DNA of 32,000 nt from Sulfolobus acidocaldarius DSM 639 (GCF_000012285.1 NC_007181.1:1920001-1952000); one strand, 5' to 3'. Counted from the stretch's first letter, positions 1 through 25,305 are shown. Numbers and translations are program-made. Notes: generated by a model from the letters alone, not told the origin.

Positions 1-485
1 GTACACTTTTTCACAACTCCTTGAACTGGATCAAAGAACCTGTTACCATAGGGGCAGCCATAAATGCAGTATTTACAACCTATGCATTTGTTATAGTCGA
101 CAAGGACTATACCGTCTTCAACTCTCTTGAAAGTTGCCCCCACTGGACATACTGGTACACAAGGGGCATTCATACAGTGGAAGCAGTTTATTGGTATATT
201 ATAAACCTTAGTTTGGGGCCAATTCCCCACTTCAACGTTTAGCACTCTCAGCCAGAACATTACGTCTAGGTCTCCGTAAGGGTTAAGGTCAGGTAATGGT
301 CCGAACATACCTGATGTGTTCCACTCTTTACATGACATCTGGCAACCTGCACAGCCAAAGCACTTATTTAAATCCGTTATTATTGCAAAGTTCTTAGATG
401 GTTTAAACGGTAACCTATATTCAACTCCGTTTTGATACATGTCTAGGGTTATTTGTTGGGGTTGAGTACTATTTGTGGAGGACAT
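1..485 (-). CDS. 4Fe-4S ferredoxin-type beta (electron-transfer) subunit of a Psr/Sre/Dms-family molybdoenzyme; the 3' end runs off the window
   Basis: Absent from the ORF track because it is truncated. My minus-strand translation from the ATG (complement of 483-485) reads [56 protein letters not shown]...[21 protein letters not shown]...[22 protein letters not shown]. These are CxxCxxCxxxC(P) cluster motifs typical of PsrB/NrfC/DmsB. A GAGGTGA SD (complement of 492-498) overlaps the alpha stop codon, 7-8 nt before this ATG. Confidence 0.85.
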
Positions 486-496
486 ATTATTTCACC

Positions 497-3400
497 TCAT
501 GGGGAAACTTGTTCTGATGCATAACCATACCTCAACTTATAATTACCAATTACGTAACCGTTTTGGGCTAAAGAGCCAGGGGATACAAAGCTCCATATTT
601 CTGTGTTCTGCATTGAGTTAGCATTGAAACGTAGATAGGGTATATCAACTGCTTGTGCAAAGGCAGGTGTAACTGGGGAATTGCTTACACTTATTTGTCC
701 ACCTATCTGAGAGACTATTGTGCTTATTATATCCTGGTTACTGAAGTCCTGTCCCATATAAATGAAAGTACTTGAGGACACACTGACCTTATTTGTGTTA
801 GCCTTTCCGACTATCTTTATCCTTGAATCATGCCATGCTGTCTGTCCTGTTATAGGGTCTAAGTTTAATATGGGAAATGCATTGTCCACGTTAGGGTCTA
901 ATGCTCCTCCTCTAGAGGGAGGCATATATACAATATTAGCCCAGTTATTCAACACACTGTACTTCACCTGAGGAGAGTCCTGAGTTTGGCTCCTGAAACC
1001 TGGTAATGCCTGAGAGGATACTACCACCCATGCAGAACCTGGTCTAGTCGCCTCGTCTAGGAACACTAATGCAGTGAGCTGAGTTGTTAGTCCCCCACTC
1101 TTGGGCTCGTTCATAGCCTGGAAAGTGACAAAATCTCCATTATTTATACCCATTGACTGAACATAGGGGTCTGCTGAACTCAGGACCATTGGGGTATAGG
1201 GTATAATAGCTGTTAACCACGGAGTAGTATAAGACCAGGAGTGATATGTTCTATCATGTCTCCTTACAAAGAATGTCAACGGATACTGGGAAAGGTCTAT
1301 ACCATCTTGAGTAATATCAGACTTCCATGTGGGAGGCGGGTAATACCCTCCAAAAGGTTTGAAGTAATCCAATATGTTATTCCTGAGAGCACTACCGTAA
1401 CTATCATTAGGCAGTGTGGATGGAACGAGGAACTTAGAGTTGTTTGTTAACTTGTAATAATAGTAGTACGCAGCGTTATAACCTGTCCATTTTCCAGCTG
1501 CAGCAAGTCTAAATCTCTGCAAATACTCAAGATATATTCTGTGAATATATGGTAACCCAACGTTACCATAACCTCCTGGCATGTAAGCTCCCCATCCTCT
1601 AAAGTAGAACATATTGACATTTCTCATGTATCTTATTGACGGTGGAAGTACGTATACTGCGCCTCCCTTACCTACCTTTACTACTCCTGGATTTATGTCA
1701 TTTAATGTCATTTTTCCGGCTGCGAAGTTATTTATTATACTTTGTAGCAGGTTCTGGAGTAATGGCTGGAACTGTACTGGTAATCTGAAGTAATCCTCAA
1801 TTCCGCCATTTCTGTTACTTGCACCTATGGTGTAAGTCGTTGCAGTAGAGAACGTTGAACCGCTAGGCACTTGAGAGGTAATTTGGCTTATGACTGTACT
1901 TTGGTCAGAGCCATTTGGAACAAATGAGGCATATAGCTTAAGCTGTTGGGGATTTGGAGTTTGCGCTTCAGCCTCATTTTTCAATATGTATTCAAAGTTT
2001 TTGCCATATCCCGCTATCAAAGTCCCTGATTTTAGGATGTAAATTCCTGTGGATATTAAGCCTGGTTGACCCTGGGAAAATATTTGTTGCCCTGTAACGG
2101 GATCATGTATGGTGACTGGGCTAACAAGTGGTAGACCTGTTACCGGATCCTGAGTAGTATAGTGTGGGTTGTTAGTGGGACTAATTGATAAGTTAGGATT
2201 GGATTTTTGGTTTGGATACCCTCTAACTAACCATAGGAGTGTAAGTAGAAAATCACCAGCACTTAGTACAGGGTATAGAGATGGAAGTGAAGGCCAATTT
2301 AAGGAATCAGAGGGTCCATTTGGCAAACTGGTAGGTCTATCAAAAGTTGAGTGAAAACCGTATACCTCTAGGAATGATAAGTCGGGAATAACTAAATCTA
2401 CAACATTATCGTTCTCGTGCATAAAGAGGTCAATAGTTGTAGTAAATGGTATAATATAGTTTCCATTCGAGTCTGTCTCTGTAACCTTTTGCAATAAATC
2501 ACTTAATGTGTAAGCGTTATTCCAATATGGTGCGGTCAAATACCACATCATTGCTTGGATATTATAAGGTATTATAGCCTTATTGAAGTACTTATTCATC
2601 AAATACGCTGTATAAGCTACTGCTGAAATTGATCTCTGTGTAGTAAGGGGTAATTCCCAACTATAGCCACGGTCAACCAGTAAAGGTCTACCTGTTTTAT
2701 AAATTACTAAGTCGTCTGGACCATCTGGGAACCCATAGGGACCTGCGGGAACCACTGACACTTTGGTGATTTCAACGGTTCCGTCATTATGTATTAACTC
2801 GTTCTTGAGAAAACCAGCCCTACCACCAGCTGGGGGCTTTACGCCCAAGGATGCAAGATCAGGATCTATTGATGGGGTATTAGCCAAAGGATGTGGAGGT
2901 ACTCCATGACCGGGGAAGTAGTGAGGGTATGGATACTTATACCCGTCAGCCCCTGGATTGTCCCAGGCACCTAACATTAATACTAAATAATAAGCTGAAG
3001 CTGCAGATTGGAATCCGTTTGCATGTGCAGCTAGCCCTCTCATAAAGTAAATGGAAACAGGTCTACCTGTGATAGACTCATGATATCTACCTAGGTAATC
3101 GACCCACTTTACAGGTTGTTGAATAGACTTCTGAAATGCAACAACTGCTAGTTCATTTGCGATCCTAACTACAGTGTACTCCGGTATTCCAGTAAGATTA
3201 GAAACATTTATGGCACCGTATTGAGCCGTCTGATCTGGTGAGGTATAGGGATCATAGTTCATTAACTCAGCCCTCAGAAGTTCAAACCCTGTTGTAACAG
3301 TCAAGGTTATGGTATTACTGCTACCGGGTGATGCAGGAACAGTTACTTGAATTGCAGGAACTTTTATCATTTGACCATTTCTCAGTCTATAGGAGACTTG

Positions 3401-4855
3401 AACTATATTACTGATCATACTTGAAGGTAACTCATCTAGGGTCAAGATGGGCATGACACCGTTTTGCCATGGTATATCAACATAGGAGTAAACATTACCA
3501 TCACTTCCTAACACAGCCTCCAGCCATTTCGAAGCAGGGAAAGTGAATGAAACAGTACTGCCTGAGGACGTTGTTGCAGTAATCTTCTGTGATGTGGAAT
3601 AGAGGCTGTTTTTCACTGGCATCCTAACATGTAAACCTGTATTATTACTCGCGTTAGGGTCTGAGGGGTCTAATGGGTCTCCATACTGAGGATTGGGATT
3701 TAGTATTACCAGCCATGACAAATTAGTATAATACCTTAAGAACTCCTCGTCTATATGAGGGAAATTGGCGGTATCTGGTATTTCACCAAATTGAGGAAGA
3801 GTTACCACCTGACCGTTAGGTGCAACAGTCTGGAAAAGCAGTTGTCCTGTCCCGCTGTAAGAGGGAGAAACTTGTTGTAAGGTAATGGGATTTAAGACTG
3901 TCTTACCATTAGAAACCTTATATACGTAAAAGTGGAAATCTACCAAGACCCTTATCCATCCCATGAACAAGGCTCCATCTGTAGCCGGATTTACATATAG
4001 GTGCTCATCCGAGACACTGTAGAAGCCAAATCTCTCAGGGGCTATAGTTAGGACTTTTCCTCCATTTTCCCTTATCCTAGCTATAATTCTCCTCATCCAA
4101 TTAGGGAAGTGATCCCCAGCAAGACCGGCTAAAATGAAGTATTGGGCTCTCGTCTCATCAGGTCCTGCATATTCCCACACTGGGGCACCAGTAACGTAAA
4201 CTCCTGCTGAGTAGACATTCATTGAGCAAAATCCTCCATGTGCACCTGAATTCGCAGTACCAAAGTTACCAGCAAAGAAACCTGCTGTTATTCCAGGGAT
4301 TAACTGATCCCTCCCTGTAAATAGGACAAATGAATGGGGATTAGTTTCCCTAATCTTCAACAGACCAGGAAAGTTACCTATACCTAAACTTCCCGGGTTC
4401 AAACCTAACTTGGACCAAGAGTTCGCATTGGCACCATTCACAAGGATATCATAAGCAGTATCGTAGTCAATGGCAATCCATTTACCTGACCCTCTTGGTC
4501 CAGCCCTAAGTAGAGGATATCTTAACCTTGAAGGAACGAAATAGTAGTAGACATCAGCTGCTCCTCTAGGACAAACTCCGCCATCATTTATGTGCCAACC
4601 AATAGTCCCAGTAACGAACCTAGGATATCCCTCTGGAGTTCTAGTTACCTGAATTGCACATCTACCTAAACACTGGAAACAGTTCGTGTACACTATTTCG
4701 TCAGAGGGATAGTTCAGGGTGTAGCTAGTTGTCTCGGCAATGGGTCTAAATATTTTATCCACAACAGAAGGAGTGCTGAGGAAAACTGCAGTACCTAAAC
4801 CAGCAAATCCACTTATTTTTAGAAAGTCTCTCCTACTTAGCTTTAATTGACTCAT
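497..4855 (-). CDS. Tat-exported molybdopterin (bis-MGD) oxidoreductase catalytic alpha subunit, unusually large at 1452 aa
   Basis: The N-terminus [26 protein letters not shown] is a consensus twin-arginine signal (SRRxFLK). It is followed by the N-terminal [4Fe-4S] motif CFQCLGRC...GGVCPRG (Cx2Cx3C...C) of the Psr/Phs/Ttr/Arr clade. A candidate Mo-ligand context is AHGGFCSMN. Conserved-looking MGD-domain blocks include [13 protein letters not shown] and [17 protein letters not shown] near the C-terminus. One uninterrupted ORF. Confidence 0.85.
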
Positions 4856-5058
4856 TAATTAAATTTTTAATAAAGTTTTTTTAAGTATTCACTTCAGTTT
4901 GAAGATATGACTGAATATTCATATTTACCATATTAGTTCATAGCCACAACCACGATAAATTTTTTTGAACAATAAGCTCACACACAATTTATCATTATTT
5001 TTTGATAAAAGTTATAGTAGTATAAATATTTAAGATTAAGTGCTTACAATTTAAAATA
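4856..5058. promoter_or_regulatory. Divergent promoter region between the alpha gene and the wHTH-led operon
   Basis: 203-bp, very AT-rich spacer. A TATA-like TATAAATATTTAAG (5021-5034) is centred about 32 nt upstream of ATG 5059. An A-run, CTTAAAAAAAC on the minus strand (about 4874-4886), lies about 25 nt upstream of the alpha ATG (4855). Both geometries suggest leaderless or short-leader mRNAs. The region also holds an 8-bp palindrome GAATATTC (4913-4920) and a 6-bp inverted repeat TTCAGT/ACTGAA (4893-4898 / 4910-4915). Confidence 0.4.
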
Positions 5059-5688
5059 ATGATAAGATTAGAACCGAATGACATACTAGTGTTGGAGGAG
5101 TTAATTTTATACATTCAGCTCACTTCATACCGTTTCTCCAAGCTTACAGGGATATCAAATGCAACGGCGTGGAGGACATTCAACAGACTAGTAGGATTAG
5201 GCTTAGTAAAGAGGGAGGATAAAAGGGGCTTTTCAATAACGGCTAGGGGTGCTATAATACTCTACTTAAACACGTCTAAGGGCAATGTGAGGAGAAGATG
5301 TTTGTCGGTCTTAAAGAAGTTGTGGAACTATGATGGTGATGAAGAGAAACTCAAGTATTTCCTAGAGGATGTAGATAAGGTTTTGAAGAGTATGAACCTA
5401 TCACCGTTTGTGATATGTTTTAATCAGCCTGTAACTATTGCCACAATGTTATACAATAAACAGGATGAGCTAAGGGAGGAGACGAAAGAGGTTATTGCAA
5501 ATATTTTGATAAACTTTTTCCCGTCAATAGATCTGAGGAACGGATGTAAGGCAATTATCTCATATGACAATAATGGAAAACCTTATGTACTTGCAGCAAA
5601 GTGCAAGAGAGAAGGTATAAAATTAAGGTATTATTGTCCCGAGATTTCAAAGTACCTCAGTGTCACAAATGCTGAATTACCTCAATGA
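5059..5688 (+). CDS. Winged-helix (MarR/TrmB-like) DNA-binding protein with a C-terminal Cys-containing domain
   Basis: The ORF has a TATA box at the correct distance. The N-terminal segment LTSYRFSKLTGISNATAWRTFNRLVGLGLVKRE reads as helix-turn-helix plus wing. I do not recognise the C-terminal half. Confidence 0.6.
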   Translation: MIRLEPNDILVLEELILYIQLTSYRFSKLTGISNATAWRTFNRLVGLGLVKREDKRGFSITARGAIILYLNTSKGNVRRRCLSVLKKLWNYDGDEEKLKYFLEDVDKVLKSMNLSPFVICFNQPVTIATMLYNKQDELREETKEVIANILINFFPSIDLRNGCKAIISYDNNGKPYVLAAKCKREGIKLRYYCPEISKYLSVTNAELPQ

Positions 5689-6532
5689 GTACTTGGAACT
5701 AGGTTTCAATCCCTCAACTATTTTAGGAACATGCGAACTGAGTGAACAATTTGGGATTTATCATGGAGAGAGAGGTGAAGAGGTAAGCCTATTTTTCATT
5801 AAGTCAAGTAGACCAATGGAGAAAAGGGGAAAAATAAATATACACTACTTCTCTCCAAAATTTGAAGTCATAATAGAGAGAAGCGTAAAGCTAAATGGAG
5901 AGGCTCTGGTCTCGGCATCCACACTGCGTATTGTTGATATAACTTTTCCCCCTGAGTCTAAGATATATGACGGTCTGTTAAGAGGTCTGGTGTTAAATCC
6001 CATAGTGGTTAAGGGAGCTGTAGATAACCTTTACTTCAAAAGAGAGGACATCTTATTTGGATGGGGCTTAGGTGAGGGTATTGCGAAGCTTGGAAAGTTT
6101 GAACCCAGTGATTATTGCATAATACAGCCTCTAGGTGAGTTAGCATTTATTTCTCTCTACAACAGGTTTGTGATGGGGAGACTTAATTTAGATGACTCCT
6201 ATGTTAGGAGAGAAAAGGAGAAGATTCTGGAAATTAGTTCAAAAGTTTACAGGGAACTCGGTGAGGTGGTAAGAGAGAACGAGAATAACCTTACGTATGT
6301 CGAGGATATTGGCATGAACCAGGACTCTGTTAAGAAATTGAAAACATTGAAGATAAAAACTATCATAGTTCATGATAAAAATATTCTAGAGCTAACAAAG
6401 AACTTCACAAAAAATCCTTTTGCAAGTCCATTTTCAGTGGTCATATTAGGAAATAAGATTGGTGTAGACAGGGTAGTTGATAAAGCCCTTAGCCTTGGCT
6501 TAAGCGTTTTCAGATCAAGTTTTATTAGTTAA
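5660..6532 (+). CDS. Hypothetical protein of about 287-290 aa with no recognised domain
   Basis: Long ORF overlapping the upstream gene by 29 nt. ATG 5669 (MLNYLNE...) is an alternative start. Same strand and tight packing imply co-transcription. Confidence 0.55.
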   Translation: MSQMLNYLNEYLELGFNPSTILGTCELSEQFGIYHGERGEEVSLFFIKSSRPMEKRGKINIHYFSPKFEVIIERSVKLNGEALVSASTLRIVDITFPPESKIYDGLLRGLVLNPIVVKGAVDNLYFKREDILFGWGLGEGIAKLGKFEPSDYCIIQPLGELAFISLYNRFVMGRLNLDDSYVRREKEKILEISSKVYRELGEVVRENENNLTYVEDIGMNQDSVKKLKTLKIKTIIVHDKNILELTKNFTKNPFASPFSVVILGNKIGVDRVVDKALSLGLSVFRSSFIS

Positions 6533-6569
6533 AAAATTATTTTTAACTTTATAATGGTGATCATAAATT

Positions 6570-7334
6570 GTGGACATGGAAGGAGAAGAGGATCCAATAT
6601 ATGAAGCTGAAAGGTTAATTGAGAAAGGGGATTATCCTGAGGCATTAAATGTCTTGGGTAATTTAAGCTTGCCTGAAGCTTATATCTTGAGGAGCAAAGC
6701 CTATATCGAGATGGGAAAAAGTGAAGAGGCTATAAGAGAACTTAAAGAGGGCATAAACAGATTTCCCTATGCCCACTATATGTATTATGAGTTAGCCTTG
6801 CTGTATTTCAATCATAATGACCTTGTTAATGCATTGGACGAGGTGAATAATGCTCTTTCAATTCTACCTTATTCTTATGATTATAATAAATTAAAGGCTA
6901 GGATACTGTTTGAAATGCAGGAATATGAACAAGCTTTTGATGTTCTCACCTATGTGATAAAGATGAAGCCTGATGATGTTGAAAGTAGGTTATTACGGGC
7001 TCAATGTTTTTACTTAACAGGAAAATTCCTAGATGCCCTTAAGGAGATAAATAGGGCTTTAGAATACAACAACAAGGACGAAACACTACACACCCTCAAG
7101 GGTAAGATCTATCTGGAGACCCATTTCTACAAGTTGGCACTAAGTGAGTTCAAGATATCTGTATCCATAAGACCCACCGCTGAAAATTATTATCTTCTTG
7201 CCTTCTCAGAGTATATGACAGGAGAATGTGGAAATGCCATAAGTGATTCTGAGAAGGCTTTAAGCCTTGATCCCAATAACAACGTGATAAGGGAGTTCTA
7301 TGAGTCCTTAAGAAATATGTGTGGACAGAAATAA
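6570..7334 (+). CDS. TPR-repeat protein (about 6 repeats)
   Basis: Repeated 34-aa TPR-like units, for example AYILRSKAYIEMGKSEEAIRELKEGI, YYELALLYFNHNDLVNALDEVNNALSILP, LLRAQCFYLTGKFLDALKEINRALEYN and YYLLAFSEYMTGECGNAISDSEKALSLDPNN. The track start is a GTG at 6570. ATG 6576 sits about 25 nt after TTTATAATGG (6547-6556), so it is a plausible leaderless start. Confidence 0.8.
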   Translation: MDMEGEEDPIYEAERLIEKGDYPEALNVLGNLSLPEAYILRSKAYIEMGKSEEAIRELKEGINRFPYAHYMYYELALLYFNHNDLVNALDEVNNALSILPYSYDYNKLKARILFEMQEYEQAFDVLTYVIKMKPDDVESRLLRAQCFYLTGKFLDALKEINRALEYNNKDETLHTLKGKIYLETHFYKLALSEFKISVSIRPTAENYYLLAFSEYMTGECGNAISDSEKALSLDPNNNVIREFYESLRNMCGQK

Positions 7335-8916
7335 TTTCAGTTTTTTGAAAAGAATCATTATTTTCCGGTTAAGCGTCTCTGAAACTAGATATTGTTTGTC
7401 GATGATAAGACTAAATGTTGGGCTAATAGTATCTAAGAAGGCTAGAGAAATACTAGGAGATGAACTTTTAGTTAGTATATTTAATGATGGAGAGATTGCG
7501 TATGTAGCTGAATATGGGGACTTCATCGAGAAAGATCTCAAAGAGAATAGCGTAAATGCATTAGTTGTAGTTAGTGAGAGCGAAAACAGGAATATCAAGG
7601 ACTTTTTGAGTAACATAGACGAGTTAACCAATATACACCCTTTGTCCGTGGAAGTGTTAGACATTAACTGGCTACAGTCAAGGGAGCAAGCAAAAGCCCT
7701 GATATTAGCTTACATAAGCAAAGCTTCCCTCTCTTTCCTTGCCCGGAGAGTTCAACCACTACGAAACAAGAACTTAACCAGGAGATCACTCTTAAGGAGA
7801 AAACTGTACTATTATAAACCCTACCCTGTACTTGCCCAGGAGATCTCCTTTGAAAGGGAGATGAAATACCTCTCATCACTTTGTGAATTAGTGGTGAAGA
7901 CCCCAGAGGGTCCACAGGTCTCCGATCCTGATAAGTGTACTTCCTGTGGATTTTGCTCAGGTATGTCGTTCTTAGGTTACCTGGAAATGCCTAACTTCAG
8001 TACAGACCAGGTCATTGCATTTATTAACACACTGAGTAAGTATGCCCCTACAGATAAGCCCGGTATAGTCCTGATCACGTGCAACAGGATTACAGATATA
8101 CCTAAACTGAAAGAGGCATACATATATCCTCTTATATCTCCCTGTGTCTCATCAGTTCACGACTCTTTCCTGACAGCAATCCTGGTCTCTGGTTTTTACC
8201 CCGTGCTATACTCCCCTGACAGCTCTTGTGAACTGAGAGATAGGGCAAAGATAAGGGCAGAAGTTGCTATCAAGAGATTCCCTGGAACCGAAATACGATT
8301 CCCTTATGTGGAGGATCTAAATGAATTAGAGGACGTGTTGAGGAATGTTGCCAGCAATTCCCTAATGTTGACCAGGAACGAGATACCTCAGGACATAGTT
8401 TTATCGAGAAGTAGAAGGAGGAATTTACTATTGTGGTCGATTTCTCAGTTCAGATCACAGTCAAAGCTGAATGAGGAAGACGAGATACCTGGAGTATTTA
8501 AGGTGGTTGTAGATCCTGATAAGTGCGTTCTTTGTGGAGTTTGTGTAAGATCTTGTCAAATGTTGGTATTTGACATTAAAAATACCTCGAGCAGTACAAC
8601 GCTGTATCACGATTTATCATATTGCATAGGTTCGCAGAGGTGTGTCAGAAATTGTCCAGAGGGGGCGATAACACTAGTGGGATCTGTTAAAATAAAGGAA
8701 CTGGGTAACAGGTCGGTGGTCTCGGCAACAATAGGTAAGTGCAAGTACTGTGGGAAGCCACTAGATTCAATAAAGGTGAAAAACAGAGTAAGTGAGATTT
8801 TGATGAGTTCAGGAATAAATGACATTGAAGACTATGTTGACGTGTGTAACGATTGCAAACAGAAGAACATGAGTAAAAAGTGGGTTGAAAAGACATTGGG
8901 GTTGAGCAAAAAATGA
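7321..8916 (+). CDS. Cytoplasmic Fe-S protein with an HdrA-C-terminal/MvhD(FlpD)-like region, a 2x[4Fe-4S] ferredoxin domain and a C-terminal CxxC...CxxC zinc-ribbon-like motif
   Basis: Motifs: PDKCTSCGFCSG; GIVLITCNR...ISPCVSSVHDSFLTAILVSGFYPVLYSPDSSCE (by eye aligns with the MvhD pattern xxCNWC...CSGRxxPxxxLxAFxxGADGVxVxGC); DPDKCVLCGVCVRSCQ; YCIGSQRCVRNCPEGA; GKCKYCGKPL...VCNDCKQK. The true start is probably ATG 7402 (MIRLNVGLIV...), because the first 27 codons overlap the TPR gene end. Confidence 0.7.
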   Translation: MDRNNFSFLKRIIIFRLSVSETRYCLSMIRLNVGLIVSKKAREILGDELLVSIFNDGEIAYVAEYGDFIEKDLKENSVNALVVVSESENRNIKDFLSNIDELTNIHPLSVEVLDINWLQSREQAKALILAYISKASLSFLARRVQPLRNKNLTRRSLLRRKLYYYKPYPVLAQEISFEREMKYLSSLCELVVKTPEGPQVSDPDKCTSCGFCSGMSFLGYLEMPNFSTDQVIAFINTLSKYAPTDKPGIVLITCNRITDIPKLKEAYIYPLISPCVSSVHDSFLTAILVSGFYPVLYSPDSSCELRDRAKIRAEVAIKRFPGTEIRFPYVEDLNELEDVLRNVASNSLMLTRNEIPQDIVLSRSRRRNLLLWSISQFRSQSKLNEEDEIPGVFKVVVDPDKCVLCGVCVRSCQMLVFDIKNTSSSTTLYHDLSYCIGSQRCVRNCPEGAITLVGSVKIKELGNRSVVSATIGKCKYCGKPLDSIKVKNRVSEILMSSGINDIEDYVDVCNDCKQKNMSKKWVEKTLGLSKK

Positions 8917-9455
8917 ACTTCGTTATAACTTTGCTTAACACGTTGATAAGAGCCCCTAATTTAAAGGAAATCCTGAAGCAAATCGAGGGATCTGATTATT
9001 TCAAGGTCGAAATTAATCCTACAAACATAACTGTGAACTCTGATGCTTATCTCCTAGAGGAGCTCTCCTATAGGGGGAGGATATTCATAGCTACGAATGT
9101 CCCGTCTAAATTAGCCTATGAGATCTTAAACAGGTTTAACCTGGACAGTTTCATTACCAGAGTAGTCTCTGCTGAAGATGTAGGCATGTTTACCACAAAT
9201 CCTAAATTTTTTGAATATTTATACAGAATGACTGGAATACAGAGGGGAACAGGTTATTTCATAACTTCCAATACCCTCTCAATAAATAATGCAAAGTCAC
9301 ATCAATTTAAGGTGGTCATGATAGACCGTGAGGGCATAAATTCCGTAAACCTGGTGGATGTAATAAAAGTTAAGGACCTTAAGAAGATCGTTGAACTGAC
9401 AGGTAAGAGTTATGTCGACACCAAAATTGGCGATTCGTCATTGAGGTGTAAGTGA
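8913..9455 (+). CDS. HAD-superfamily-like protein with degenerate catalytic motifs (likely a pseudo-enzyme)
   Basis: An ATGA start/stop overlap with the upstream gene (8913-8916) indicates translational coupling. IFIATNVPSKLAYEILNRFNLDSFITRVVSAEDVG...NPKFFEYL...YFITSNTLSINNAKSHQFKVVMID resembles HAD motifs II-IV. Motif I (DxDGTL) reads ITLLNTL, and the motif IV aspartates are S/N. Confidence 0.5.
   Translation: MNFVITLLNTLIRAPNLKEILKQIEGSDYFKVEINPTNITVNSDAYLLEELSYRGRIFIATNVPSKLAYEILNRFNLDSFITRVVSAEDVGMFTTNPKFFEYLYRMTGIQRGTGYFITSNTLSINNAKSHQFKVVMIDREGINSVNLVDVIKVKDLKKIVELTGKSYVDTKIGDSSLRCK
9443..9448 (+). promoter_or_regulatory. Shine-Dalgarno GAGGTG for the TTG-initiated ORF at 9457
   Basis: GAGGTG lies 8 nt upstream of TTG 9457 and inside the end of the preceding gene. 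This matches the Sulfolobales pattern of an SD in front of internal operon genes. Confidence 0.5.
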
Positions 9456-9456
9456 T

Positions 9457-9873
9457 TTGATATCCGACTCAGAAATCGTTGAAATATTTAAGGAGTTGGG
9501 AATGAAGGTAAAGGAGGAAAAACAGCAAGGGTTACACTTTCACGTCAGTATATCTCCACCAACTGCAAACTCCGCCATAGTGTCTATAATAAGACCCACA
9601 GCCTTTTCGAAGTACTATGTGGTGACTATGGCAATAGAGGTTGACCCACCTAAACTGAATAAGAAAGTGTTGAGGGAGATCGGTGTAGAGTTGGCTAGGC
9701 TAAATGTGGAATTTTACGTTATGCCACCAGATAAACCAACTACAATTCAGATTGCTAAGCTATTATATCAAGAGGACTTAAGTAAAAACGAATTAATAAA
9801 CACGGTAACACTTGTGAAGAATGCAGGTTTTATCGTATTTAATATACTTAGTGGAGAAAATATGAATGACTAG
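9457..9873 (+). CDS. Hypothetical 138-aa protein with no recognised domain
   Basis: The ORF has a TTG start preceded by a strong SD and begins 1 nt after the upstream stop, so it is operonic. Confidence 0.6.
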   Translation: MISDSEIVEIFKELGMKVKEEKQQGLHFHVSISPPTANSAIVSIIRPTAFSKYYVVTMAIEVDPPKLNKKVLREIGVELARLNVEFYVMPPDKPTTIQIAKLLYQEDLSKNELINTVTLVKNAGFIVFNILSGENMND

Positions 9874-9930: not shown

Positions 9931-10980
9931 ATGGGTCTATTCACTGCACCAGCTCCAGGTACTAATTTTGGAATAAACTCACCACTGTTGCAGATTAACC
10001 AATATCCTGAATGGGATGTAACAGTCGCACTAGCACTCTATTTTACTGGACTTGCAGGAATGTTGATGGCTATAACTTCAATCCTAGAGTTCACTGGGAG
10101 ATATCCAAGTTTGGTGAAGAGAAACTCAATCTTCGTATTTATATTTGCTGTCCTATCCCTGGTAGCATTTGATATACATTTAGGAGTACCTATAAGAGGG
10201 TTCTATGCCCCTGCAAATGCATTCGCGGCTCTTTTGAATTCGTGGATGGCAAGAGGTATTGAATTCGTGGGAGGACTGCTAGTTTTCTCATTGATTTTTA
10301 TGGCTATTAAGGTACTTGATGTGAAAAATGTTGTTGCCACATGGGTGTTTGCAATTTTAGGGCTCGTGGCAGGCATTTTTTCCACGACTTATAGTGGTTT
10401 TGAACTATCTGCTGCGACTGGTGTACCTTTCTGGAATAATGGAGGGCTTCCTGCACTTTTCTTAGCGTCAGGTATAGTAGGTGGTAGTGCATGGAGTTAT
10501 ATAATAAGTCTAGTGACGAAGGGCGAGGAAGGAATAAGGGCTAGAAGGCTTACTGCAAAACTTTTAGCATACTCTGCAGTAGCTGAGCTAGCAACGTGGT
10601 TCCTCTTCATGGCAAACGTCAATTTCGTTTACGTATTCAACGAAGTAGCCTATAACTACATGATATCAGCAGTAACGTTTGTAATAGACCTAGCATTACT
10701 AGGATTGGCATTTGTAGTGCCTGGTGTAGGTAATCTAATGATGTGGAGAATGTTGAGGAAAACTAGCTCACAATCTCCAAGTCCTTCACCTATTGACTTT
10801 CCTAATTACTTGAAAATAATTATACTGGTCGTCGCAATATTAGCTTTAGTCTCTGGGTTCTTCACCAGGGAGGATATACTTTTCGCCGGTCAATACGCAT
10901 ATCAAGTAGCCCCACTAACGCCATTCCAATATACTAATGGTCAGCCCACACCTATAGGTGCATTTGGGTGGAGAAGTTAG
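9931..10980 (+). CDS. NrfD/PsrC-type polytopic membrane anchor subunit of the molybdoenzyme
   Basis: 349 aa with about 8-9 hydrophobic helices. The N-terminal signature EWDVTVALALYFTGLAGM matches the NrfD-family pattern Wxxx(I/V)AxYxFxxGxxxG. No heme-ligand pattern is obvious. A TATA-like TTTATTTATTATAATAA (about 9899-9915) suggests it may also have its own promoter. Confidence 0.75.
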   Translation: MGLFTAPAPGTNFGINSPLLQINQYPEWDVTVALALYFTGLAGMLMAITSILEFTGRYPSLVKRNSIFVFIFAVLSLVAFDIHLGVPIRGFYAPANAFAALLNSWMARGIEFVGGLLVFSLIFMAIKVLDVKNVVATWVFAILGLVAGIFSTTYSGFELSAATGVPFWNNGGLPALFLASGIVGGSAWSYIISLVTKGEEGIRARRLTAKLLAYSAVAELATWFLFMANVNFVYVFNEVAYNYMISAVTFVIDLALLGLAFVVPGVGNLMMWRMLRKTSSQSPSPSPIDFPNYLKIIILVVAILALVSGFFTREDILFAGQYAYQVAPLTPFQYTNGQPTPIGAFGWRS

Positions 10981-15960: not shown

Positions 15961-16042
15961 ATTAAGACTGTTTTAGCCAAAGCCTAATGGAGACCGTGGT
16001 TTTAATTTTATAGCTTTTAAGCTCTAAACCAAAAGTAATAGT

Positions 16043-16831
16043 GTGGATGAGACTGACAGGCTAATAATATTCAATCTGCTCAGGGATGGAAGAATATCCC
16101 AGAACAAACTAGCTAAGATTATAAACCTAGCTCCTCCCTCTCTGAACTCGAGGTTCAGAAGACTGATCGATGAAGGAGTAATAAGGGGCTTCAAGGTTTT
16201 CATAAACCCAAACCTAATAAACAAGTACTTCGCATATTACGCTTTTCCCAATCTAAGAGAGGCTTACTCAGATAAGATATTCGTGAAATTCAATTGCCTT
16301 GAGAACTTCAACGTTTATGGGTTTCAGGGCGAAAGTATTGAAGAGATAAAAGAGACTGTGGATGGAATTTCCTCAGAGTTAGGAAAACCCATAATGGAGT
16401 ATATCCCTCCTCAGACTCCCATAAAGCCTAAAAAGCAATATCTACTACTGATAAAGACACTAGTTGAGAATCCTAGGGCTGAAATAAGTGAAATAGCAAA
16501 CAAGCTCAACTTTAAGGTATCGAAGGTTAGGAGGTTGATTAGTGAACTTAAGGGATTTGCAGTAATACCAGAGGTTGACCTGATAAAAGCCGACTCAATG
16601 CTCCTGGCTGTCTTTACAAAGAAGCTTAATGACGTGATAACAGTCACCAACAGGTTCTCGGTCATAACAATACCCGGAGCGTTAGGAGGAATTGATGTGA
16701 GCTTTGTTGGTTCAATACGGAATGCGAAGGCAATGATCGATAATGTGAGGAGGATAGATCCAGACGCACAGGTGATGTTGGTTTATAATTACGAGATAAA
16801 GAACGACACAAGGAATTTGGAAATTGAATAA
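16043..16831 (+). CDS. Lrp/AsnC-like regulator with an internally duplicated HTH-plus-effector-domain architecture
   Basis: GTG start. HTH 1: DRLIIFNLLRDGRISQNKLAKIINLAPPSLNSRFRRLIDEGVIRGF. HTH 2: LLLIKTLVENPRAEISEIANKLNFKVSKVRRLISELKGFAVI. Each is followed by about 70 aa of RAM-like sequence. At 262 aa it is about twice a normal Lrp. Confidence 0.7.
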   Translation: MDETDRLIIFNLLRDGRISQNKLAKIINLAPPSLNSRFRRLIDEGVIRGFKVFINPNLINKYFAYYAFPNLREAYSDKIFVKFNCLENFNVYGFQGESIEEIKETVDGISSELGKPIMEYIPPQTPIKPKKQYLLLIKTLVENPRAEISEIANKLNFKVSKVRRLISELKGFAVIPEVDLIKADSMLLAVFTKKLNDVITVTNRFSVITIPGALGGIDVSFVGSIRNAKAMIDNVRRIDPDAQVMLVYNYEIKNDTRNLEIE

Positions 16832-16969
16832 TTTAGCTTACAGTAAGTTACCAAGACAAGTGTGGACTTATGTTGATTTTTTATGGATAATTAACGTATT
16901 TTTGATCAAGGAATTGTTGCACATAATGAGCCTAAAGCCTAATAAGCCATATGTTATTATACAAAATAT

Positions 16970-17188
16970 ATGAAGTATGCTAATTTTTGGATCAAATTCA
17001 AAAATTGGGCTATAAATGCTGAAGACAAGGACGTTCCGTTGAGACTGAGAGAGGTGGTCAGGGTTATAAAGGAAAATCCTGAAATTTCTGTAGTTAAGTT
17101 AGCTGCATACTTTGACAGTGATGCGTTATTTCTTGCGAGGTCTATCTATTTTAATTACAAGAAAATGGTTCAGAACGAGGTAGCTTAA
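16970..17188 (+). CDS. Small hypothetical protein (72 aa)
   Basis: An isolated ORF in an otherwise empty 480-bp gap. The A/T-rich upstream sequence is too close to the ATG to be a clear TATA. No domain recognised. Confidence 0.3.
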   Translation: MKYANFWIKFKNWAINAEDKDVPLRLREVVRVIKENPEISVVKLAAYFDSDALFLARSIYFNYKKMVQNEVA

Positions 17189-17313
17189 TTCTAGTTCTTT
17201 ACCACGAGACCTTTACTTAAGGGATATTTCTCCTCAACGAACGTCTTATAATTTACACTATTACGTATATTTACTACTATATACTTAAAGGTGACTTAGT
17301 GTGAAAGAGAGTG

Positions 17314-18009
17314 TCAGAATTTGTTAGAGTTGTCTACGAAAACTTGCATCAATACTTTCCTAATGGCATTCCTTATATGTCTGTCCAGGGCTACCTTCGT
17401 CACCCCATACATTTTGGCTAACTCCTCGAGCTTAGTCTTCTTAGGATAATCAAAGAAACCCATCTTATACGCTGTGTATAGTATCTGTCTCTCTGTAGGT
17501 GTAAGCGATGAGAGGATCATCATCTCACTCTTAACCTCATCCATTTCTACCCTATCAAAATCAAGGTTTTCAACCTCTACATTGATCTTTTTTAGCTCTT
17601 CACTAATTTGGGTCTCCAATTGATCTCTCTTGTTGAATGTGTAGACTTGCCAGTCTTCGATACCATCACTCACAGTAAGATTCGCCACAATAGCGTTACT
17701 GTTCATCATAGCCTTTGTAATTGAGTTCTCAAAGTTCTTAAAGTAGTAAAGTAAGGCTGTCTTACTTGACTTATTCCTATCAACCCTTATGATCTTTATG
17801 TTATTCCTATACTTTCTACTTAACACGTCAATGAAGTCTGTTAGCTGAGTTTTTGTGTTTGAATATAACTCAACTATTTCAAAAACAGAGTTCTTTGCCA
17901 CAAGAGGGAAGAGGTATTTTACATTTGCCGTAACATCATAACCTGATGTCTCCTGTGTCCAACAAGCATCATGTTTAACCCGCATCCTCACCTTGTAAAT
18001 TTGCATCAT
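17314..18009 (-). CDS. HTH_10 (bacterio-opsin-activator-type) transcriptional regulator
   Basis: C-terminal LTPTERQILYTAYKMGFFDYPKKTKLEELAKMYGVTKVALDRHIRNAIRKVL matches the HTH_10 pattern (LTxrQxexLxxAxxxGYFdxPR...LAxxLGxsxxtxxxHLRxAexK). ACTATATATAATAAC on the minus strand lies about 25-38 nt upstream of the ATG. Confidence 0.75.
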   Translation of the reverse strand: MMQIYKVRMRVKHDACWTQETSGYDVTANVKYLFPLVAKNSVFEIVELYSNTKTQLTDFIDVLSRKYRNNIKIIRVDRNKSSKTALLYYFKNFENSITKAMMNSNAIVANLTVSDGIEDWQVYTFNKRDQLETQISEELKKINVEVENLDFDRVEMDEVKSEMMILSSLTPTERQILYTAYKMGFFDYPKKTKLEELAKMYGVTKVALDRHIRNAIRKVLMQVFVDNSNKF

Positions 18010-18142
18010 AGTTGGTTTTATATAGGGCGAGTTATTATATATAGTTTATTATTTTCATTGATATTATTTATTTTTTATTTTCAAATAAATGATTATATCC
18101 TAAGCCTAGCTTTACATTATAACCTTTGTGTAACGTAGTACT

Positions 18143-18211
18143 CCTCGGTCTCACCTGAAAGAGGTTGCTGACGTCTTGTCATTGGCTTACTCCCCACCAT
18201 AAGGGACGAGG
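18143..18211. other. GC-rich structured island; candidate small ncRNA or degenerate element remnant
   Basis: About 53% GC over 18141-18226, inside a 402-bp intergenic region that is otherwise very AT-rich. Helices found by eye: closing stem 18143-18152 with 18203-18211 (CCTCG/CGAGG plus TC/GA, one bulge); hairpins ACCT-gaaag-AGGT (18153-18165) and TGAC-gtctt-GTCA (18169-18181). No ORF with a start codon spans it. Confidence 0.25.
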
Positions 18212-18411
18212 CTTTCTCGACTTCGTAAAGTAATTGATGCGGTTTACTCAGTATTACTTTATTGAGGACTTTAATATCACTAGACTATAGGCGTATTACA
18301 CTAGAATATGCTTCATAATTATTAATTTACCCCTGAATAATTTTCATATAGTATTTAAGTTTAAACTCTTTAAACGTAATGTTTATTAAATGACAACGAG
18401 AAAACCACTTT

Positions 18412-23480: not shown

Positions 23481-24245
23481 TTATCTTTTTTCTCCCAAAT
23501 TAACTTTCCCTAGGGCAAAACTCGTCATAACCTCTGTTATCTCCTCCACATTAGTCTCCTCTTTCTTCTTATGAAATATTATTTTTCCTCTGTCAAGTAC
23601 ATAGATCCTATCAGCAACCTCATATCCCTGAATTATATTGTGGGTAATTATCAAGACGCCGAGCCCCTTCTTTTTTAGGTTTCGTGCTAACTCTAGTACT
23701 TTCCTAGCCTCTACGACACTTAATGCTGCAGTGGGCTCGTCCATCAAAATCATTTTAGCAGAGAAATAGACCGCCCTAGCAACAGCTACTGCCTGCCTTT
23801 GTCCACCTGACAAGTTCTCCACTTTCATATTTATATCAGGTATTCTTATCTGTAGGGAGTCGAGTAATTTTTTAGACTCCTCCATCATTTTTTTCTTATT
23901 GAGGAATATCTTATTTGTTACTTCCCTAGCCAAGAATATGTTGTAATAAATTGGTAAATCGGGGATTAGAGCTAAATCCTGATATATAGTCTCTATACCC
24001 AAACTTCTAGCATCATTCGGAGAGTTAAATATGACCTTCTTTCCCTCAAATACTAAGTCTCCGCGGTCAGGTTTGTGATAACCTGAAATTATTTTAATTA
24101 GCGTTGATTTTCCCGCTCCGTTATCGCCAAGTAAAGCAACCACTTCACCCTTATTTATCTCCATTGATACACCGTCCAACGCTTTAACAGCACCAAAACT
24201 CTTATGAACATCCCTTATCTCTAGTAGGTCACTCATTTTCCTCAA
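23481..24245 (-). CDS. Sugar ABC importer ATP-binding protein (single NBD)
   Basis: Walker A GDNGAGKST, signature LSGGQRQ, Walker B ILMDEPT, H-loop ITHN. Overlaps the permease gene end by 17 nt. GAGG lies 5 nt upstream of the ATG. Confidence 0.9.
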   Translation of the reverse strand: MRKMSDLLEIRDVHKSFGAVKALDGVSMEINKGEVVALLGDNGAGKSTLIKIISGYHKPDRGDLVFEGKKVIFNSPNDARSLGIETIYQDLALIPDLPIYYNIFLAREVTNKIFLNKKKMMEESKKLLDSLQIRIPDINMKVENLSGGQRQAVAVARAVYFSAKMILMDEPTAALSVVEARKVLELARNLKKKGLGVLIITHNIIQGYEVADRIYVLDRGKIIFHKKKEETNVEEITEVMTSFALGKVNLGEKR

Positions 24246-25299: not shown

Positions 25300-25305
25300 T
25301 GTAGG

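Follow-up and report, generated by a model that had tools for sequence, protein, structure and literature searches.

The window analysed here, 32 000 nucleotides of the chromosome of Sulfolobus acidocaldarius DSM 639, carries near its beginning a gene for a protein of 1452 residues. Three questions arise from this locus: whether such a length is real, what the additional residues are and which reaction the protein catalyses. The first-pass annotation had proposed a giant, Tat-exported molybdopterin catalytic subunit with large internal insertions. Our analysis supports this, placing the Tat-signal-bearing protein in the Mo-bisMGD (DMSO reductase) family and showing the insertions to be lineage-specific. 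Judged from its sequence, the protein is predicted to be the catalytic (A) subunit of an exported molybdoenzyme, limited to Sulfolobales and representing a much enlarged relative of SoeA, a sulfite dehydrogenase subunit of bacteria. The literature search turned up no paper on this protein, and it belongs to no curated family.

The single uninterrupted ORF described previously was recovered in the ORF list and by translation (table 1). A reading frame of 1452 codons cannot be of chance origin. The homologue search revealed more than 30 full-length orthologues of 1421–1458 aa across Sulfolobales (S. acidocaldarius, Saccharolobus, Sulfurisphaera, Metallosphaera, Acidianus and Ca. Aramenus), the length being equal in independent complete genomes and in metagenomes. 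As all of these are collinear with shorter relatives, and the protein itself aligns with shorter single-gene homologues throughout its length, the length is genuine, and a fusion or sequencing error, named earlier as a potential source of the extra residues, is ruled out. The protein had been said to exceed PsrA, DmsA, TtrA and NarG, in agreement with the chain lengths retrieved in the PDB search (1247 aa for NarG and 1148 aa for NxrA); it surpasses NarG by about 200 aa. Neither the homologue search nor the tree described below revealed a characterised clade of enzymes of such length.

Table 1. Position of the predicted genes, motifs and expanded regions in the window (aa, residues of the A subunit).
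Feature	Coordinates	Strand	Description and basis
FeS (B) subunit gene, 5' part	1..485	-	first 161 aa, cut by window edge; Fer4_11 and related matches
Catalytic (A) subunit gene	497..4855	-	1452 aa, 159.9 kDa; stop codon 497-499; ORF list, translation, orthologues
C-terminal extension, aa 1365-1452	500..763	-	kept in Sulfolobales, 63% mean identity; AlphaFold pLDDT ~35
Insertion, aa 1127-1160	1376..1477	-	includes a 19-residue peptide; common to Vulcanisaeta/Caldivirga relatives; conserved sequon N1150
Expanded region 2, aa 861-1067	1655..2275	-	several insertions around conserved core stretches, e.g. one of 11 residues
Inserted beta-hairpin, aa 661-703	2747..2875	-	common to Vulcanisaeta/Caldivirga relatives, absent from SoeA (alignment)
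Expanded region 1, aa 309-546	3218..3931	-	mosaic of five insertions around a small conserved subdomain; predicted beta-rich unit
AHGGFC motif, aa 205-210	4226..4243	-	Cys210, inferred Mo ligand
FS0 [4Fe-4S] binding motif, aa 59-98	4562..4681	-	C59-x2-C62-x3-C66...C95-P-R97-G
Tat signal peptide region, aa 1-33	4757..4855	-	SRRDFLK twin-arginine motif and hydrophobic stretch
Winged-helix regulator	5059-5688	+	209 aa; Pfam/NCBIfam
290-aa protein	5660-6532	+	Pfam/NCBIfam
TPR protein	6570-7334	+	Pfam/NCBIfam
Cytoplasmic ferredoxin-domain protein	7321-8916	+	~500 aa; Pfam/NCBIfam
HAD-like protein	8913-9455	+	180 aa; Pfam/NCBIfam
DUF2299	9457-9873	+	Pfam/NCBIfam
NrfD-family membrane protein	9931..10980	+	349 aa, ~8-9 hydrophobic segments; Pfam NrfD, hydropathy

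The cluster motif reported in the first pass is present: its four cysteines, followed by Arg97, are invariant or almost so in two alignments (A1 and A4). This motif aligns to the FS0 domain of PsrA and gives a weak match to the Pfam model Molybdop_Fe4S4. The AHGGFC motif is invariant in the giant clade and in SoeA-like proteins, and the motifs TDGAL and MRG..H.NGF are likewise invariant. In a pairwise alignment, Cys210 pairs with a cysteine of Thermus thermophilus PsrA that is presumably the Mo ligand of that enzyme. A search with the signature Nx[GAS]AHGGFC[SA] pulled out the SoeA genes of sulfur oxidisers. The A subunit is predicted to carry Mo- or W-bisMGD, with a NarJ-type chaperone and moeA/mobA-like neighbours as indirect support.

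None of the Pfam molybdopterin domain models reaches its threshold on the protein, which would be compatible with a cofactor-less, non-catalytic scaffold comparable to QrcB or ActB, or with a fusion or assembly artefact. Such an origin is extremely improbable and already essentially refuted by the invariance of the FS0 cysteines, of the Cys ligand motif and of the MGD-binding motifs, by the dedicated chaperone and cofactor genes that accompany the enzyme, and by the constant length and collinearity described above.

The fold predicted for residues 253–1452 was compared with solved structures using Foldseek, and the listed matches with E ≤ 0.001 are all chains of the DMSO reductase family: PcrA (3e-10), EbdA, NxrA, NarG, ArrA and FDH. 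These matches identify the four-domain MGD-binding fold of the family, although truncation of the model and the presence of the inserts keep the TM-score at only about 0.3. NarG, NxrA, EbdA and PcrA, which have the best E-values, are other large members of the family; unlike the present protein, they use an Asp ligand, their insertions are non-homologous and they are distant in sequence. Among solved chains, PsrA (2vpw, E 1.5e-35) comes closest by sequence profile, and the N-terminus is best matched by the NCBIfam models PhsA, TtrA and ArrA. Membership of the PsrA/PhsA family was considered and rejected: with its cut-off set at 694, the PhsA model reaches 62.8 bits and covers aa 5–140 only, and in the tree PhsA stands apart from the group. 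PsrA has about 760 aa, and its likeness to the A subunit is recognisable in sequence only over the first 310 or so residues. The resemblance to T. thermophilus PsrABC lies in the Tat-exported A-B-NrfD-type architecture and in the Cys ligand of Mo.

A neighbour-joining tree, based on 904 core columns and including SoeA, the long Tat-bearing clade, PhsA and DmsA, was used to place the protein. SoeA and the long Tat clade are grouped at 100 per cent with respect to PhsA and DmsA. The core, whose position the earlier description had left to phylogeny, belongs with SoeA in this sense, in a separate clade of long, Tat-bearing proteins that is itself monophyletic at 100 per cent and along which length rises. 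As the monophyly of SoeA receives 38 per cent support, the long Tat clade is either sister to SoeA or nested in it. Core identity is 31–34 per cent to SoeA, 21 per cent to PhsA (from an Escherichia coli plasmid) and 19 per cent to DmsA.

SoeA, the catalytic subunit of the sulfite:quinone dehydrogenase SoeABC known from work on Allochromatium vinosum and Aquifex aeolicus, is the nearest family of known function. The cores of the two proteins are collinear throughout (full E ~1e-100 for the block match to SoeA-like proteins), and they share the FS0 motif and the signature with the Cys ligand; the accompanying FeS subunit is also of SoeB type. However, SoeA has only about 965 aa, faces the cytoplasm and lacks a Tat signal, the SoeA-like proteins beginning directly at the FS0 motif. 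The A subunit further differs from SoeA in having half its content of charged residues and approximately 480 extra residues.

The additional length appears to have grown in steps, from SoeA (~965 aa) through a Desulfitobacteriaceae metagenome-assembled genome (1074 aa, P0053), a metagenome contig (1183 aa, P0052) and Vulcanisaeta/Caldivirga (~1250 aa; 1246–1268 aa in cluster P0036) to Sulfolobales (~1450 aa). A relative from Thermoproteus sp. (L007) also belongs to this set. These long relatives form a clade with the Sulfolobales proteins at 100 per cent bootstrap, with 38–40 per cent core identity, a Tat signal and the same operon. They share the hairpin at aa 663–703, the segment at aa 1128–1150 and part of region 1, but are 190–380 aa shorter, lacking aa 309–361, most of aa 978–1045 and the full C-terminal tail.

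Judged from their domains, the flanking genes make up a classical complex of the A-B-NrfD kind, with an adjacent four-cluster ferredoxin subunit B and a chaperone resembling NarJ. The start of the B gene follows the A stop codon at a distance of 12 nt; the full-length orthologue of B in strain SUSAZ has 277 aa and is 46 per cent identical to SoeB over 201 aa (E 9e-69). The NrfD protein probably anchors the complex and reacts with quinone. In this genome its gene is displaced by 5 kb and lies on the other strand, whereas in relatives (L002, L005, L088 and the P0052 locus) it directly adjoins the A gene. The operon order NrfD-A-B-NarJ-like-ferredoxin is found in all members of the clade, and the chaperone resembles type II (EbdD/NarJ) chaperones. 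In SoeABC the anchor SoeC is of the DmsC family; when the NrfD anchor was compared with a DmsC-family protein whose gene follows a soeAB pair, no significant similarity emerged. Judged from its Tat signal and its anchor, the complex lacks two features that define SoeABC, cytoplasmic orientation and a DmsC-type SoeC, which counts against the sulfite-oxidising scheme favoured below.

The six genes between positions 5059 and 9873 are transcribed divergently from the A gene, and the set is kept beside the enzyme genes in S. islandicus (L003) and in L005; they may have a role in maturation or regulation. In L005, moeA and a mobA-like gene adjoin the cluster, beside tatA and tatC. The operon of strain SUSAZ also encodes a membrane-anchored 336-aa protein, rich in S/T and in sequons, which could be a partner.

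The consensus Tat signal reported for the protein was found at aa 7–13, followed by a hydrophobic stretch of 13 residues, and matches the Pfam and TIGR Tat models weakly. RRDFLK is invariant among the orthologues, and Tat motifs also occur in the relatives of 1074–1263 aa. The A subunit probably crosses the membrane and is extracellular. Its predicted export is supported indirectly by its content of charged residues (K + R + D + E), which at 13.4 per cent matches that of an extracellular sugar-binding protein encoded in the window (13.2%); the proportion is 16.6 per cent in the B subunit, 23–31 per cent in cytoplasmic proteins encoded in the window and 22–25 per cent in SoeA/SoeB. So low a charge fits with exposure of the A subunit to external acid. 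The B subunit has no Tat motif of its own and so would be exported together with A.

The nature of the extra residues was addressed by alignment with shorter homologues. Aa ~309–545 and ~861–1067 indeed lack counterparts in the nearest of these, as expected from the long internal insertions described in the first pass. They do not constitute two large blocks: the approximately 480 additional residues are spread over at least eight sites (aa 141–163, 309–366, 388–401, 423–441, 474–518, 663–694, 878–894, 978–1066 and 1128–1148), to which a C-terminal tail is added. The insertions of region 1 are located at aa 309–366, 388–401, 423–441, 474–487 and 496–518; those of region 2 at aa 878–894, 934–943, 978–1045 and 1051–1066. 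Three peptides quoted previously as examples of inserted sequence were found where they had been placed (aa 422–444, 502–525 and 966–1011), but a part of 11 residues is conserved core common to SoeA. A segment of 19 residues (aa 424–442) is a lineage-specific indel, missing from the S. islandicus and Acidianus orthologues. Within Sulfolobales, the insert regions are conserved, with a mean identity of 60–73 per cent.

It had been suggested that the inserts may be modules of Ig-like or beta-sandwich type, exposed at the outer face, where they would capture substrate, touch the S-layer or particles, or be glycosylated. Several observations are compatible with this: the protein is probably extracellular, the inserts are richer in S/T/N/Q than the core (32% versus 21.5%), the SUSAZ operon protein might serve as partner, and region 1 is predicted by AlphaFold to be beta-rich, with a pLDDT of ~80–93 in context and of 83.7 (pTM 0.77) when folded alone. 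Against it, the model of aa 309–546, the one region modelled confidently by itself and the one to which the structural comparison applies, has no neighbour in the PDB or BFVD (best Foldseek E-values 0.6 and 0.06, respectively; TM ≤ 0.17). In the remainder of the protein, the hairpin at aa 661–703 has two confident strands (model residues 428–451, pLDDT 77–91), and region 2, where helix and strand are mixed, was modelled at low confidence (pLDDT 45–73), as was the C-terminal tail.

Comparisons of sequence gave a similar picture. Profiles of region 1, region 2 and the C-terminal extension match no solved structure in the PDB, the Pfam scan yielded nothing in the insert regions and no internal repeats were found in the protein. 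In an exhaustive search of 1.84 billion representatives, no listed protein matches through the inserts, and the listed homologues from outside the Sulfolobales clade all score best in the core. The N-x-S/T sequons, described as many, number nine, fewer than expected by chance, as composition-matched shuffles gave 13.2 ± 3.2; conservation is limited to N378 and N1150. Since no structural or sequence match was found anywhere, the beta-rich region 1 is not demonstrably Ig-like, and glycosylated display modules are, given also the scattering of the extra residues, very improbable. The alignments suggest instead that at many sites these residues extend parts of the surface that already existed, and that they are not discrete inserted domains.

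The substrate had been considered not to be deducible from sequence alone, and we agree. The reading that we favour, with modest confidence, is that of an outward-facing, membrane-bound, three-subunit molybdoenzyme that oxidises sulfite or a related oxyanion and whose inserts are surface elaborations. Subunit A would be folded in the cytoplasm and loaded there with the [4Fe-4S] cluster (Cys59/62/66/95) and Mo-bisMGD (ligand Cys210), the NarJ/TorD-type chaperone helping its assembly before the Tat system exports it with B. Outside the cell the pair would sit on the NrfD anchor instead of a DmsC protein, despite being grouped with the cytoplasmic SoeAB. The weakest step of this scheme is its chemistry: most probably, sulfite or a closely related sulfur oxyanion would be oxidised at the outer face, and the electrons would pass through FS0 and the four clusters of B before reaching caldariellaquinone at the NrfD subunit. 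The extra residues, gained stepwise at surface sites in the Tat-exported clade, may constitute novel beta-rich, charge-poor elaborations providing an outer layer for the hot acid (pH 2–3) outside the cell; they may also touch partner proteins, whereas a function in capture or display is not part of this reading.

Sulfite is suggested as substrate solely by the identity of about 32 per cent to SoeA and by the gene context of one neighbour. As for gene context, the 1183-aa relative is adjoined by rhodanese, SoxYZ, metallo-beta-lactamase and SoxA/TsdA genes, and TauE adjoins a bona fide soeABC. Homologues of SoeAB have been noted in Metallosphaera genomes, their role in Archaea being stated as unestablished (PMC7325606, PMC8551704), and for the sulfite:acceptor oxidoreductase of Acidianus the literature candidate is only a 203-aa SUOX-type homologue of untested activity (PMC5461723). 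In this superfamily, 32 per cent identity is insufficient to fix specificity, and Psr-type NrfD complexes mostly work as reductases. S. acidocaldarius is a heterotroph with, to our knowledge, no known growth on sulfur compounds. A serious though lesser possibility is a terminal reductase of the same architecture and enlarged surface working in the other direction: quinol would be oxidised at NrfD and the electrons handed to an acceptor outside the cell, for example polysulfide/sulfur, tetrathionate, thiosulfate, arsenate, Fe(III) or Mo(VI). The combination of A-B-NrfD and Tat signal is the layout of Psr/Phs/Ttr enzymes, in line with the N-terminal NCBIfam matches and with PsrA as closest solved structure, and the nearest long relatives come from anaerobic, reducing organisms (Vulcanisaeta, Caldivirga, Thermoproteus and Desulfitobacteriaceae), which speaks against sulfite oxidation. 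Tat-exported crenarchaeal molybdoenzymes of unknown function in Pyrodictium have also been proposed as Fe(III) reductases (PMC8105010). On the other hand, the core groups with SoeA and not with PhsA, B is close to SoeB, the enzyme is kept in aerobic Sulfolobales including S. acidocaldarius, and the 1183-aa relative is encoded among Sox and rhodanese genes.

A more specific version of the sulfite-oxidising scheme, which we regard as unlikely, is that the complex is the long-sought quinone-reducing sulfite:acceptor oxidoreductase of the Sulfolobales membrane, inverted with respect to the bacterial SoeABC and with the inserts as 'armour'. Were this the case, sulfite/SO2 would be oxidised outside the cell at pH 2–3 and ~75–80°C, a lineage-specific armour of ~480 residues with a novel fold would allow Mo-bisMGD and the FeS clusters, which are acid-labile, to function in hot acid, and no catalytic subunit of the DMSO reductase family would be larger or more exposed to acid.

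The catalytic subunit A is encoded by a single unbroken ORF of 1452 codons (ORF list and translation). The protein has a mass of 159.9 kDa, and hydropathy analysis places its sole hydrophobic segment at the N-terminus, which carries a consensus twin-arginine (Tat) signal. The motif of FS0, the N-terminal [4Fe–4S] site, reads C59-x2-C62-x3-C66...C95-P-R-G, and every peptide quoted in the first-pass annotation was found in the protein where it had been placed. The gene is a real feature. Full-length orthologues recovered by a search of 5.8 billion proteins measure 1421–1458 aa, and the protein is collinear with single-gene homologues from end to end, so that the unusual length already pointed out is genuine. 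To our knowledge, this is the largest catalytic subunit of its family.

The S. acidocaldarius SUSAZ orthologue is 95% identical and shares one 90% cluster with the DSM 639 protein. The remaining orthologues (58–80% identity) come from Saccharolobus, S. islandicus, Sulfurisphaera, Metallosphaera, Acidianus, Ca. Aramenus and metagenomes; the protein itself is present on 57 contigs, the longest of 2.29 Mb. When HMMER was run exhaustively against 1.84 billion representatives at 50% identity (query aa 253–1452, E <= 0.001), only 329 relatives emerged, with the whole giant group in one cluster; the clade is therefore narrow and, within the searched sample, restricted to Sulfolobales. In the Thermoproteus sp. 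UBA157 MAG, the A homologue is split into two overlapping ORFs of 449 and 938 aa in different frames; the gene is either a pseudogene or carries a frameshift introduced by MAG assembly.

Coordinates of subunit A, its structural segments and neighbouring features.
Feature	Sequence	Position	Strand or counterpart
Subunit A gene	window	497..4855	-
Inverted repeat, first arm	window	4989-5001	
Inverted repeat, second arm	window	5053-5065	
Genes for winged-helix regulator, 290-aa, TPR, ~500-aa cytoplasmic ferredoxin-domain, HAD-like and DUF2299 proteins	window, upstream of A		divergent from A
NrfD-family membrane protein gene	window	9931-10980	opposite to A
HTH_10 regulator gene	window	17314-18009	-
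Xanthine-dehydrogenase/aldehyde-oxidase large subunit gene	window	18412-20589	+
380-aa protein gene	window	22046-23188	-
CUT2-type sugar transporter genes	window	23481-26514	-
Sul12a enrichment	DSM 639 chromosome	1,916,073-1,927,216	
336-aa protein gene	SUSAZ locus (L001)	16037-17047	
490-aa NapH-like ferredoxin gene	SUSAZ locus (L001)	17145-18617	
EB_dh-domain protein and cytochrome b genes	S. islandicus locus (L003)	1-5072	
Split A homologue	Thermoproteus locus (L007)	5974-9664	
Matching block	A protein	aa 38-310	SoeA-like (~965 aa) aa 4-252
Matching block	A protein	aa 541-661	SoeA-like aa 340-461
Matching block	A protein	aa 704-859	SoeA-like aa 467-614
Matching block	A protein	aa 1068-1126	SoeA-like aa 700-754
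Matching block	A protein	aa 1160-1350	SoeA-like aa 760-930
Insert sites	A protein	aa 141-163, 309-366, 388-401, 423-441, 474-518	
Insert sites	A protein	aa 663-694, 878-894, 978-1066, 1128-1148	
C-terminal tail	A protein	aa ~1365-1452	
19-aa indel	A protein	aa 424-442	window 3530-3586

Curated models scarcely recognize the protein. Over its whole length, Pfam gave sub-threshold Tat and Fe4S4 matches only, and NCBIfam and PDB sequence searches matched the first ~310 residues only: the NCBIfam PhsA model, whose cut-off is 694 bits, scored 62.8, while the PDB match was to PsrA (2vpw) with an E-value of 7e-9. No family assignment of the whole protein was obtained from Pfam or NCBIfam. The protein is thus a very divergent family member that lies outside every curated equivalog. 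Because the Pfam molybdopterin models miss it, annotation pipelines say only ‘oxidoreductase’ or ‘Tat signal domain-containing protein’.

Among families of known function, the closest affinity is with SoeA, a subunit of the cytoplasm-facing sulfite:quinone dehydrogenase SoeABC. The FS0 cysteines and the motifs AHGGFC, TDGAL and MRG..H.NGF are invariant in the giant clade and in SoeA-like proteins, which argues for a cofactor-bearing, catalytic protein. Cys210, within AHGGFC, lies opposite a Cys of PsrA in the alignment. A scan of genome contigs for the signature Nx[GAS]AHGGFC[SA] found it, among the matches listed, in the soeA genes of Halorhodospira, Thiobacillus, Aquificaceae, Thiothrix, Ruegeria and others. 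Bacterial SoeA genes dominated these listed matches, which also gave the Thermoproteus locus and had no Sulfolobales genome among them. Phylogeny of the core, proposed in the first-pass annotation as a means of placing the clade, was reconstructed by neighbour joining (904 core columns, 200 bootstraps), with PhsA and a DmsA-type protein, both from annotated E. coli plasmids, as outgroups. This unites SoeA with a clade of long, Tat-bearing proteins at 100% bootstrap. The long clade is itself monophyletic (100%); SoeA monophyly receives a bootstrap of only 38%, so that the long clade may be either sister to SoeA or nested within it. Core identity of the giant protein is 38–40% to its long relatives, 31–34% to SoeA, 21% to PhsA and 19% to DmsA. 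Length rises along the long clade, from 1074 aa in Desulfitobacteriaceae through 1183 aa in a metagenomic relative (P0052) and ~1250 aa in Vulcanisaeta/Caldivirga to 1427–1458 aa in Sulfolobales. Every member bears the Tat motif, which in the Desulfitobacteriaceae protein is visible only after start-codon correction; SoeA-like proteins are without it.

Identity with SreA, the sulfur reductase of Acidianus, was rejected as improbable from the list of homologues and the distribution of the genes: no SreA-like protein appeared in that list, and sreABC is reported from a subset of Sulfolobales only, whereas the giant A gene is order-wide.

Alignment with SoeA-like proteins shows that the ~480 extra residues are spread over at least eight sites and a C-terminal tail, and not concentrated in two blocks. 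The hairpin at aa 663–703 and the segment at aa 1128–1150 are common to the 1250-aa Vulcanisaeta and Caldivirga relatives, and some other insertions are found in Sulfolobales alone. Within Sulfolobales, mean identity to the query is 60–73% in the inserts versus 76–89% in the core. One peptide quoted in the first-pass annotation as a typical insert is a 19-aa indel and a natural deletion variant: S. acidocaldarius-type orthologues and one further sequence (P0034) have kept it, but those of S. islandicus and Acidianus lack it.

The first-pass annotation, largely right in its description, had also proposed that the inserts may be Ig-like or beta-sandwich modules and glycosylated; these two points found no support. 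AlphaFold models were built for aa 253–1452 and for the first expanded region (aa 309–546) alone. In the longer model (pTM 0.76), this region (aa ~316–545) and the 661–703 hairpin are confident and beta-rich, the second expanded region (aa 861–1067) reaches a pLDDT of 45–73 at most, and the C-terminal tail (~35) is unpredicted; part of the conserved core, aa 773–864, is also poorly modelled in this run. The first region is predicted to fold as a unit, since its lone model reaches a pLDDT of 83.7 and a pTM of 0.77. Foldseek comparison of the lone model gave no similar structure, whether from the PDB (best E 0.6, TM <= 0.17) or from BFVD, profiles of the two expanded regions and the tail had no match among solved structures, and self-comparison detected no internal repeats. 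Among the HMMER matches listed, the best-scoring stretch of homologues outside the Sulfolobales clade always lies in the core. Ig-like or beta-sandwich modules are therefore unsupported. The extra residues would instead enlarge pre-existing surface elements, giving a fold without known neighbour. The ‘many’ N-glycosylation sequons amount to nine and are not enriched, the expectation being 13.2 +/- 3.2; two of them, N378 and N1150, are conserved and the others are not. The many-site distribution, the composition and the length series might indicate that the inserts form a stabilising outer layer for hot acid, a proposal that we regard as possible, though less likely than not.

Charged residues (K+R+D+E) make up 13.4% of A and 16.6% of its FeS partner B, compared with 23–31% in cytoplasmic proteins and 13.2% in an extracellular sugar-binding protein of the same window. 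The Vulcanisaeta-type relative has 17.9%, and SoeA and SoeB have 22–25%. This low charge, combined with a Tat signal that is conserved and with tat genes beside one orthologue, supports a presumably exported, outward-facing enzyme exposed to the acidic medium.

The B gene, coding for a four-cluster ferredoxin, starts 12 nt downstream of the A stop and runs past the window edge. The SUSAZ orthologue of B, 277 aa long, lacks a signal and shares 46% identity with SoeB. Next in the SUSAZ operon come genes for a NarJ/EbdD-type chaperone, a 336-aa membrane-anchored protein and a NapH-like membrane ferredoxin; the last two genes, 3' of the chaperone gene, correspond to sequence beyond the left edge of the window. 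In the 336-aa protein, a single membrane helix at the N-terminus is accompanied by an S/T-rich linker and several N-x-S/T sequons, and only 7% of the residues are charged. The complex may include both proteins as additional subunits or have them as partners. The divergent gene set of the window also accompanies the orthologues in S. islandicus and at another Sulfolobales locus (L005), where tatA, tatC, moeA and a mobA-like gene adjoin the cluster.

Shorter relatives have the canonical order NrfD-A-B-chaperone-ferredoxin. In every one of them and at L005, the gene for NrfD, the membrane anchor, lies immediately upstream of A; in the window, six accessory genes separate it from A-B. The cluster has been rearranged in S. 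acidocaldarius. The NrfD-family anchor is unrelated to the DmsC-type SoeC of SoeABC and fits a topology inverted relative to that enzyme. Tat-exported molybdoenzyme complexes of the Psr/Soe lineage are a well-known kind of system; new in this variant would be the size of the catalytic subunit, the predicted inversion relative to SoeABC and the proposed surface elaborations without a matching fold.

The giant gene and the gene of the 209-aa winged-helix regulator diverge from a 203-bp promoter region that contains a perfect 13-nt inverted repeat (TTATCATTATTTT / AAAATAATGATAA, 51 nt between arms), whose second arm overlaps the regulator start codon. It could be an operator. A few kb from the cluster, S. 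islandicus has genes for a possibly CbsA-like protein with an EB_dh domain and for a cytochrome b that may be SoxN-like; they are a possible neighbouring respiratory module, or their proximity may be coincidence.

We regard the giant protein as a divergent, apparently intact Mo-bisMGD catalytic subunit of an A-B-NrfD complex related to SoeAB. That it oxidizes sulfite is a tentative assignment, somewhat short of an even chance. Sulfite or a related sulfur oxyanion is suggested by the SoeA/SoeB kinship, by the genes adjoining that of P0052 (rhodanese, SoxYZ, metallo-beta-lactamase and SoxA/TsdA, taken from gene calls), by a weakly TusA-like neighbour at L005 and by an activity of Sulfolobales still without a gene. 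Acidianus was described in 1999 as having a membrane-bound sulfite:acceptor oxidoreductase activity; the only gene since proposed for it encodes a small SUOX-type homologue of 203 aa, the candidate of the literature (PMC8551704, PMC5461723). For Metallosphaera, the literature notes ‘SoeAB’ in the genomes, its role being unproven. A reductase role, which we judge somewhat less likely than sulfite oxidation, would agree with the anaerobic reducers that host the nearest long relatives and with the Psr-type reductase architecture of the complex; moreover, 32% identity to SoeA is too low to fix specificity, which counts against sulfite. A link to the ‘MoOR’ Fe(III)-reductase candidates of Pyrodictium/Pyrobaculum was also considered.

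If sulfite is the substrate, the membrane-bound sulfite-oxidizing activity of Sulfolobales would gain a concrete candidate that is open to genetic work, and sulfite oxidation and energy conservation would have to be redrawn in thermoacidophile pathway maps. The SoeAB module would then have an exported form as well, facing outward and seated on another anchor. The clade would offer a natural experiment in which a cofactor-rich enzyme was rebuilt for hot acid through charge depletion and stepwise surface accretion, from 1074 to ~1450 aa, a series that may run parallel to the acidophily of the hosts.

The giant gene is probably Saci_2102. In S. acidocaldarius, Saci_2103 is a predicted MarR-type regulator, Saci_2116 is xylR and Saci_2122 is xylF (PMC8578740). 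Genes of the window for an HTH_10 regulator and for the binding protein, permease and ATPase of a CUT2-type ABC sugar transporter are probably xylR and xylFGH (Saci_2120–2122), respectively; by gene order, this would make the giant gene Saci_2102 and the 209-aa regulator Saci_2103. A full-text literature search found no publication on the giant protein, and the one mention of Saci_2102 concerns a ChIP-seq peak of a chromatin protein, Sul12a, to which it is the nearest ORF. No other Sul12a enrichment in the genome is as strong or as wide as this peak (6.9-fold over 11 kb; PMC9025068), which has an intragenic summit and probably overlaps the window.

A second, unrelated molybdenum enzyme in the window is a 725-aa xanthine-dehydrogenase/aldehyde-oxidase large subunit; none of the ORFs scanned beside it has recognizable FAD or [2Fe-2S] subunit domains. 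Further along, AT and GC skew are both strongly negative in the 22–24 kb bins, which coincide with the gene of a 380-aa protein; charged residues make up 39.7% of this protein, and its Pfam matches are only weak ones of coiled-coil type.
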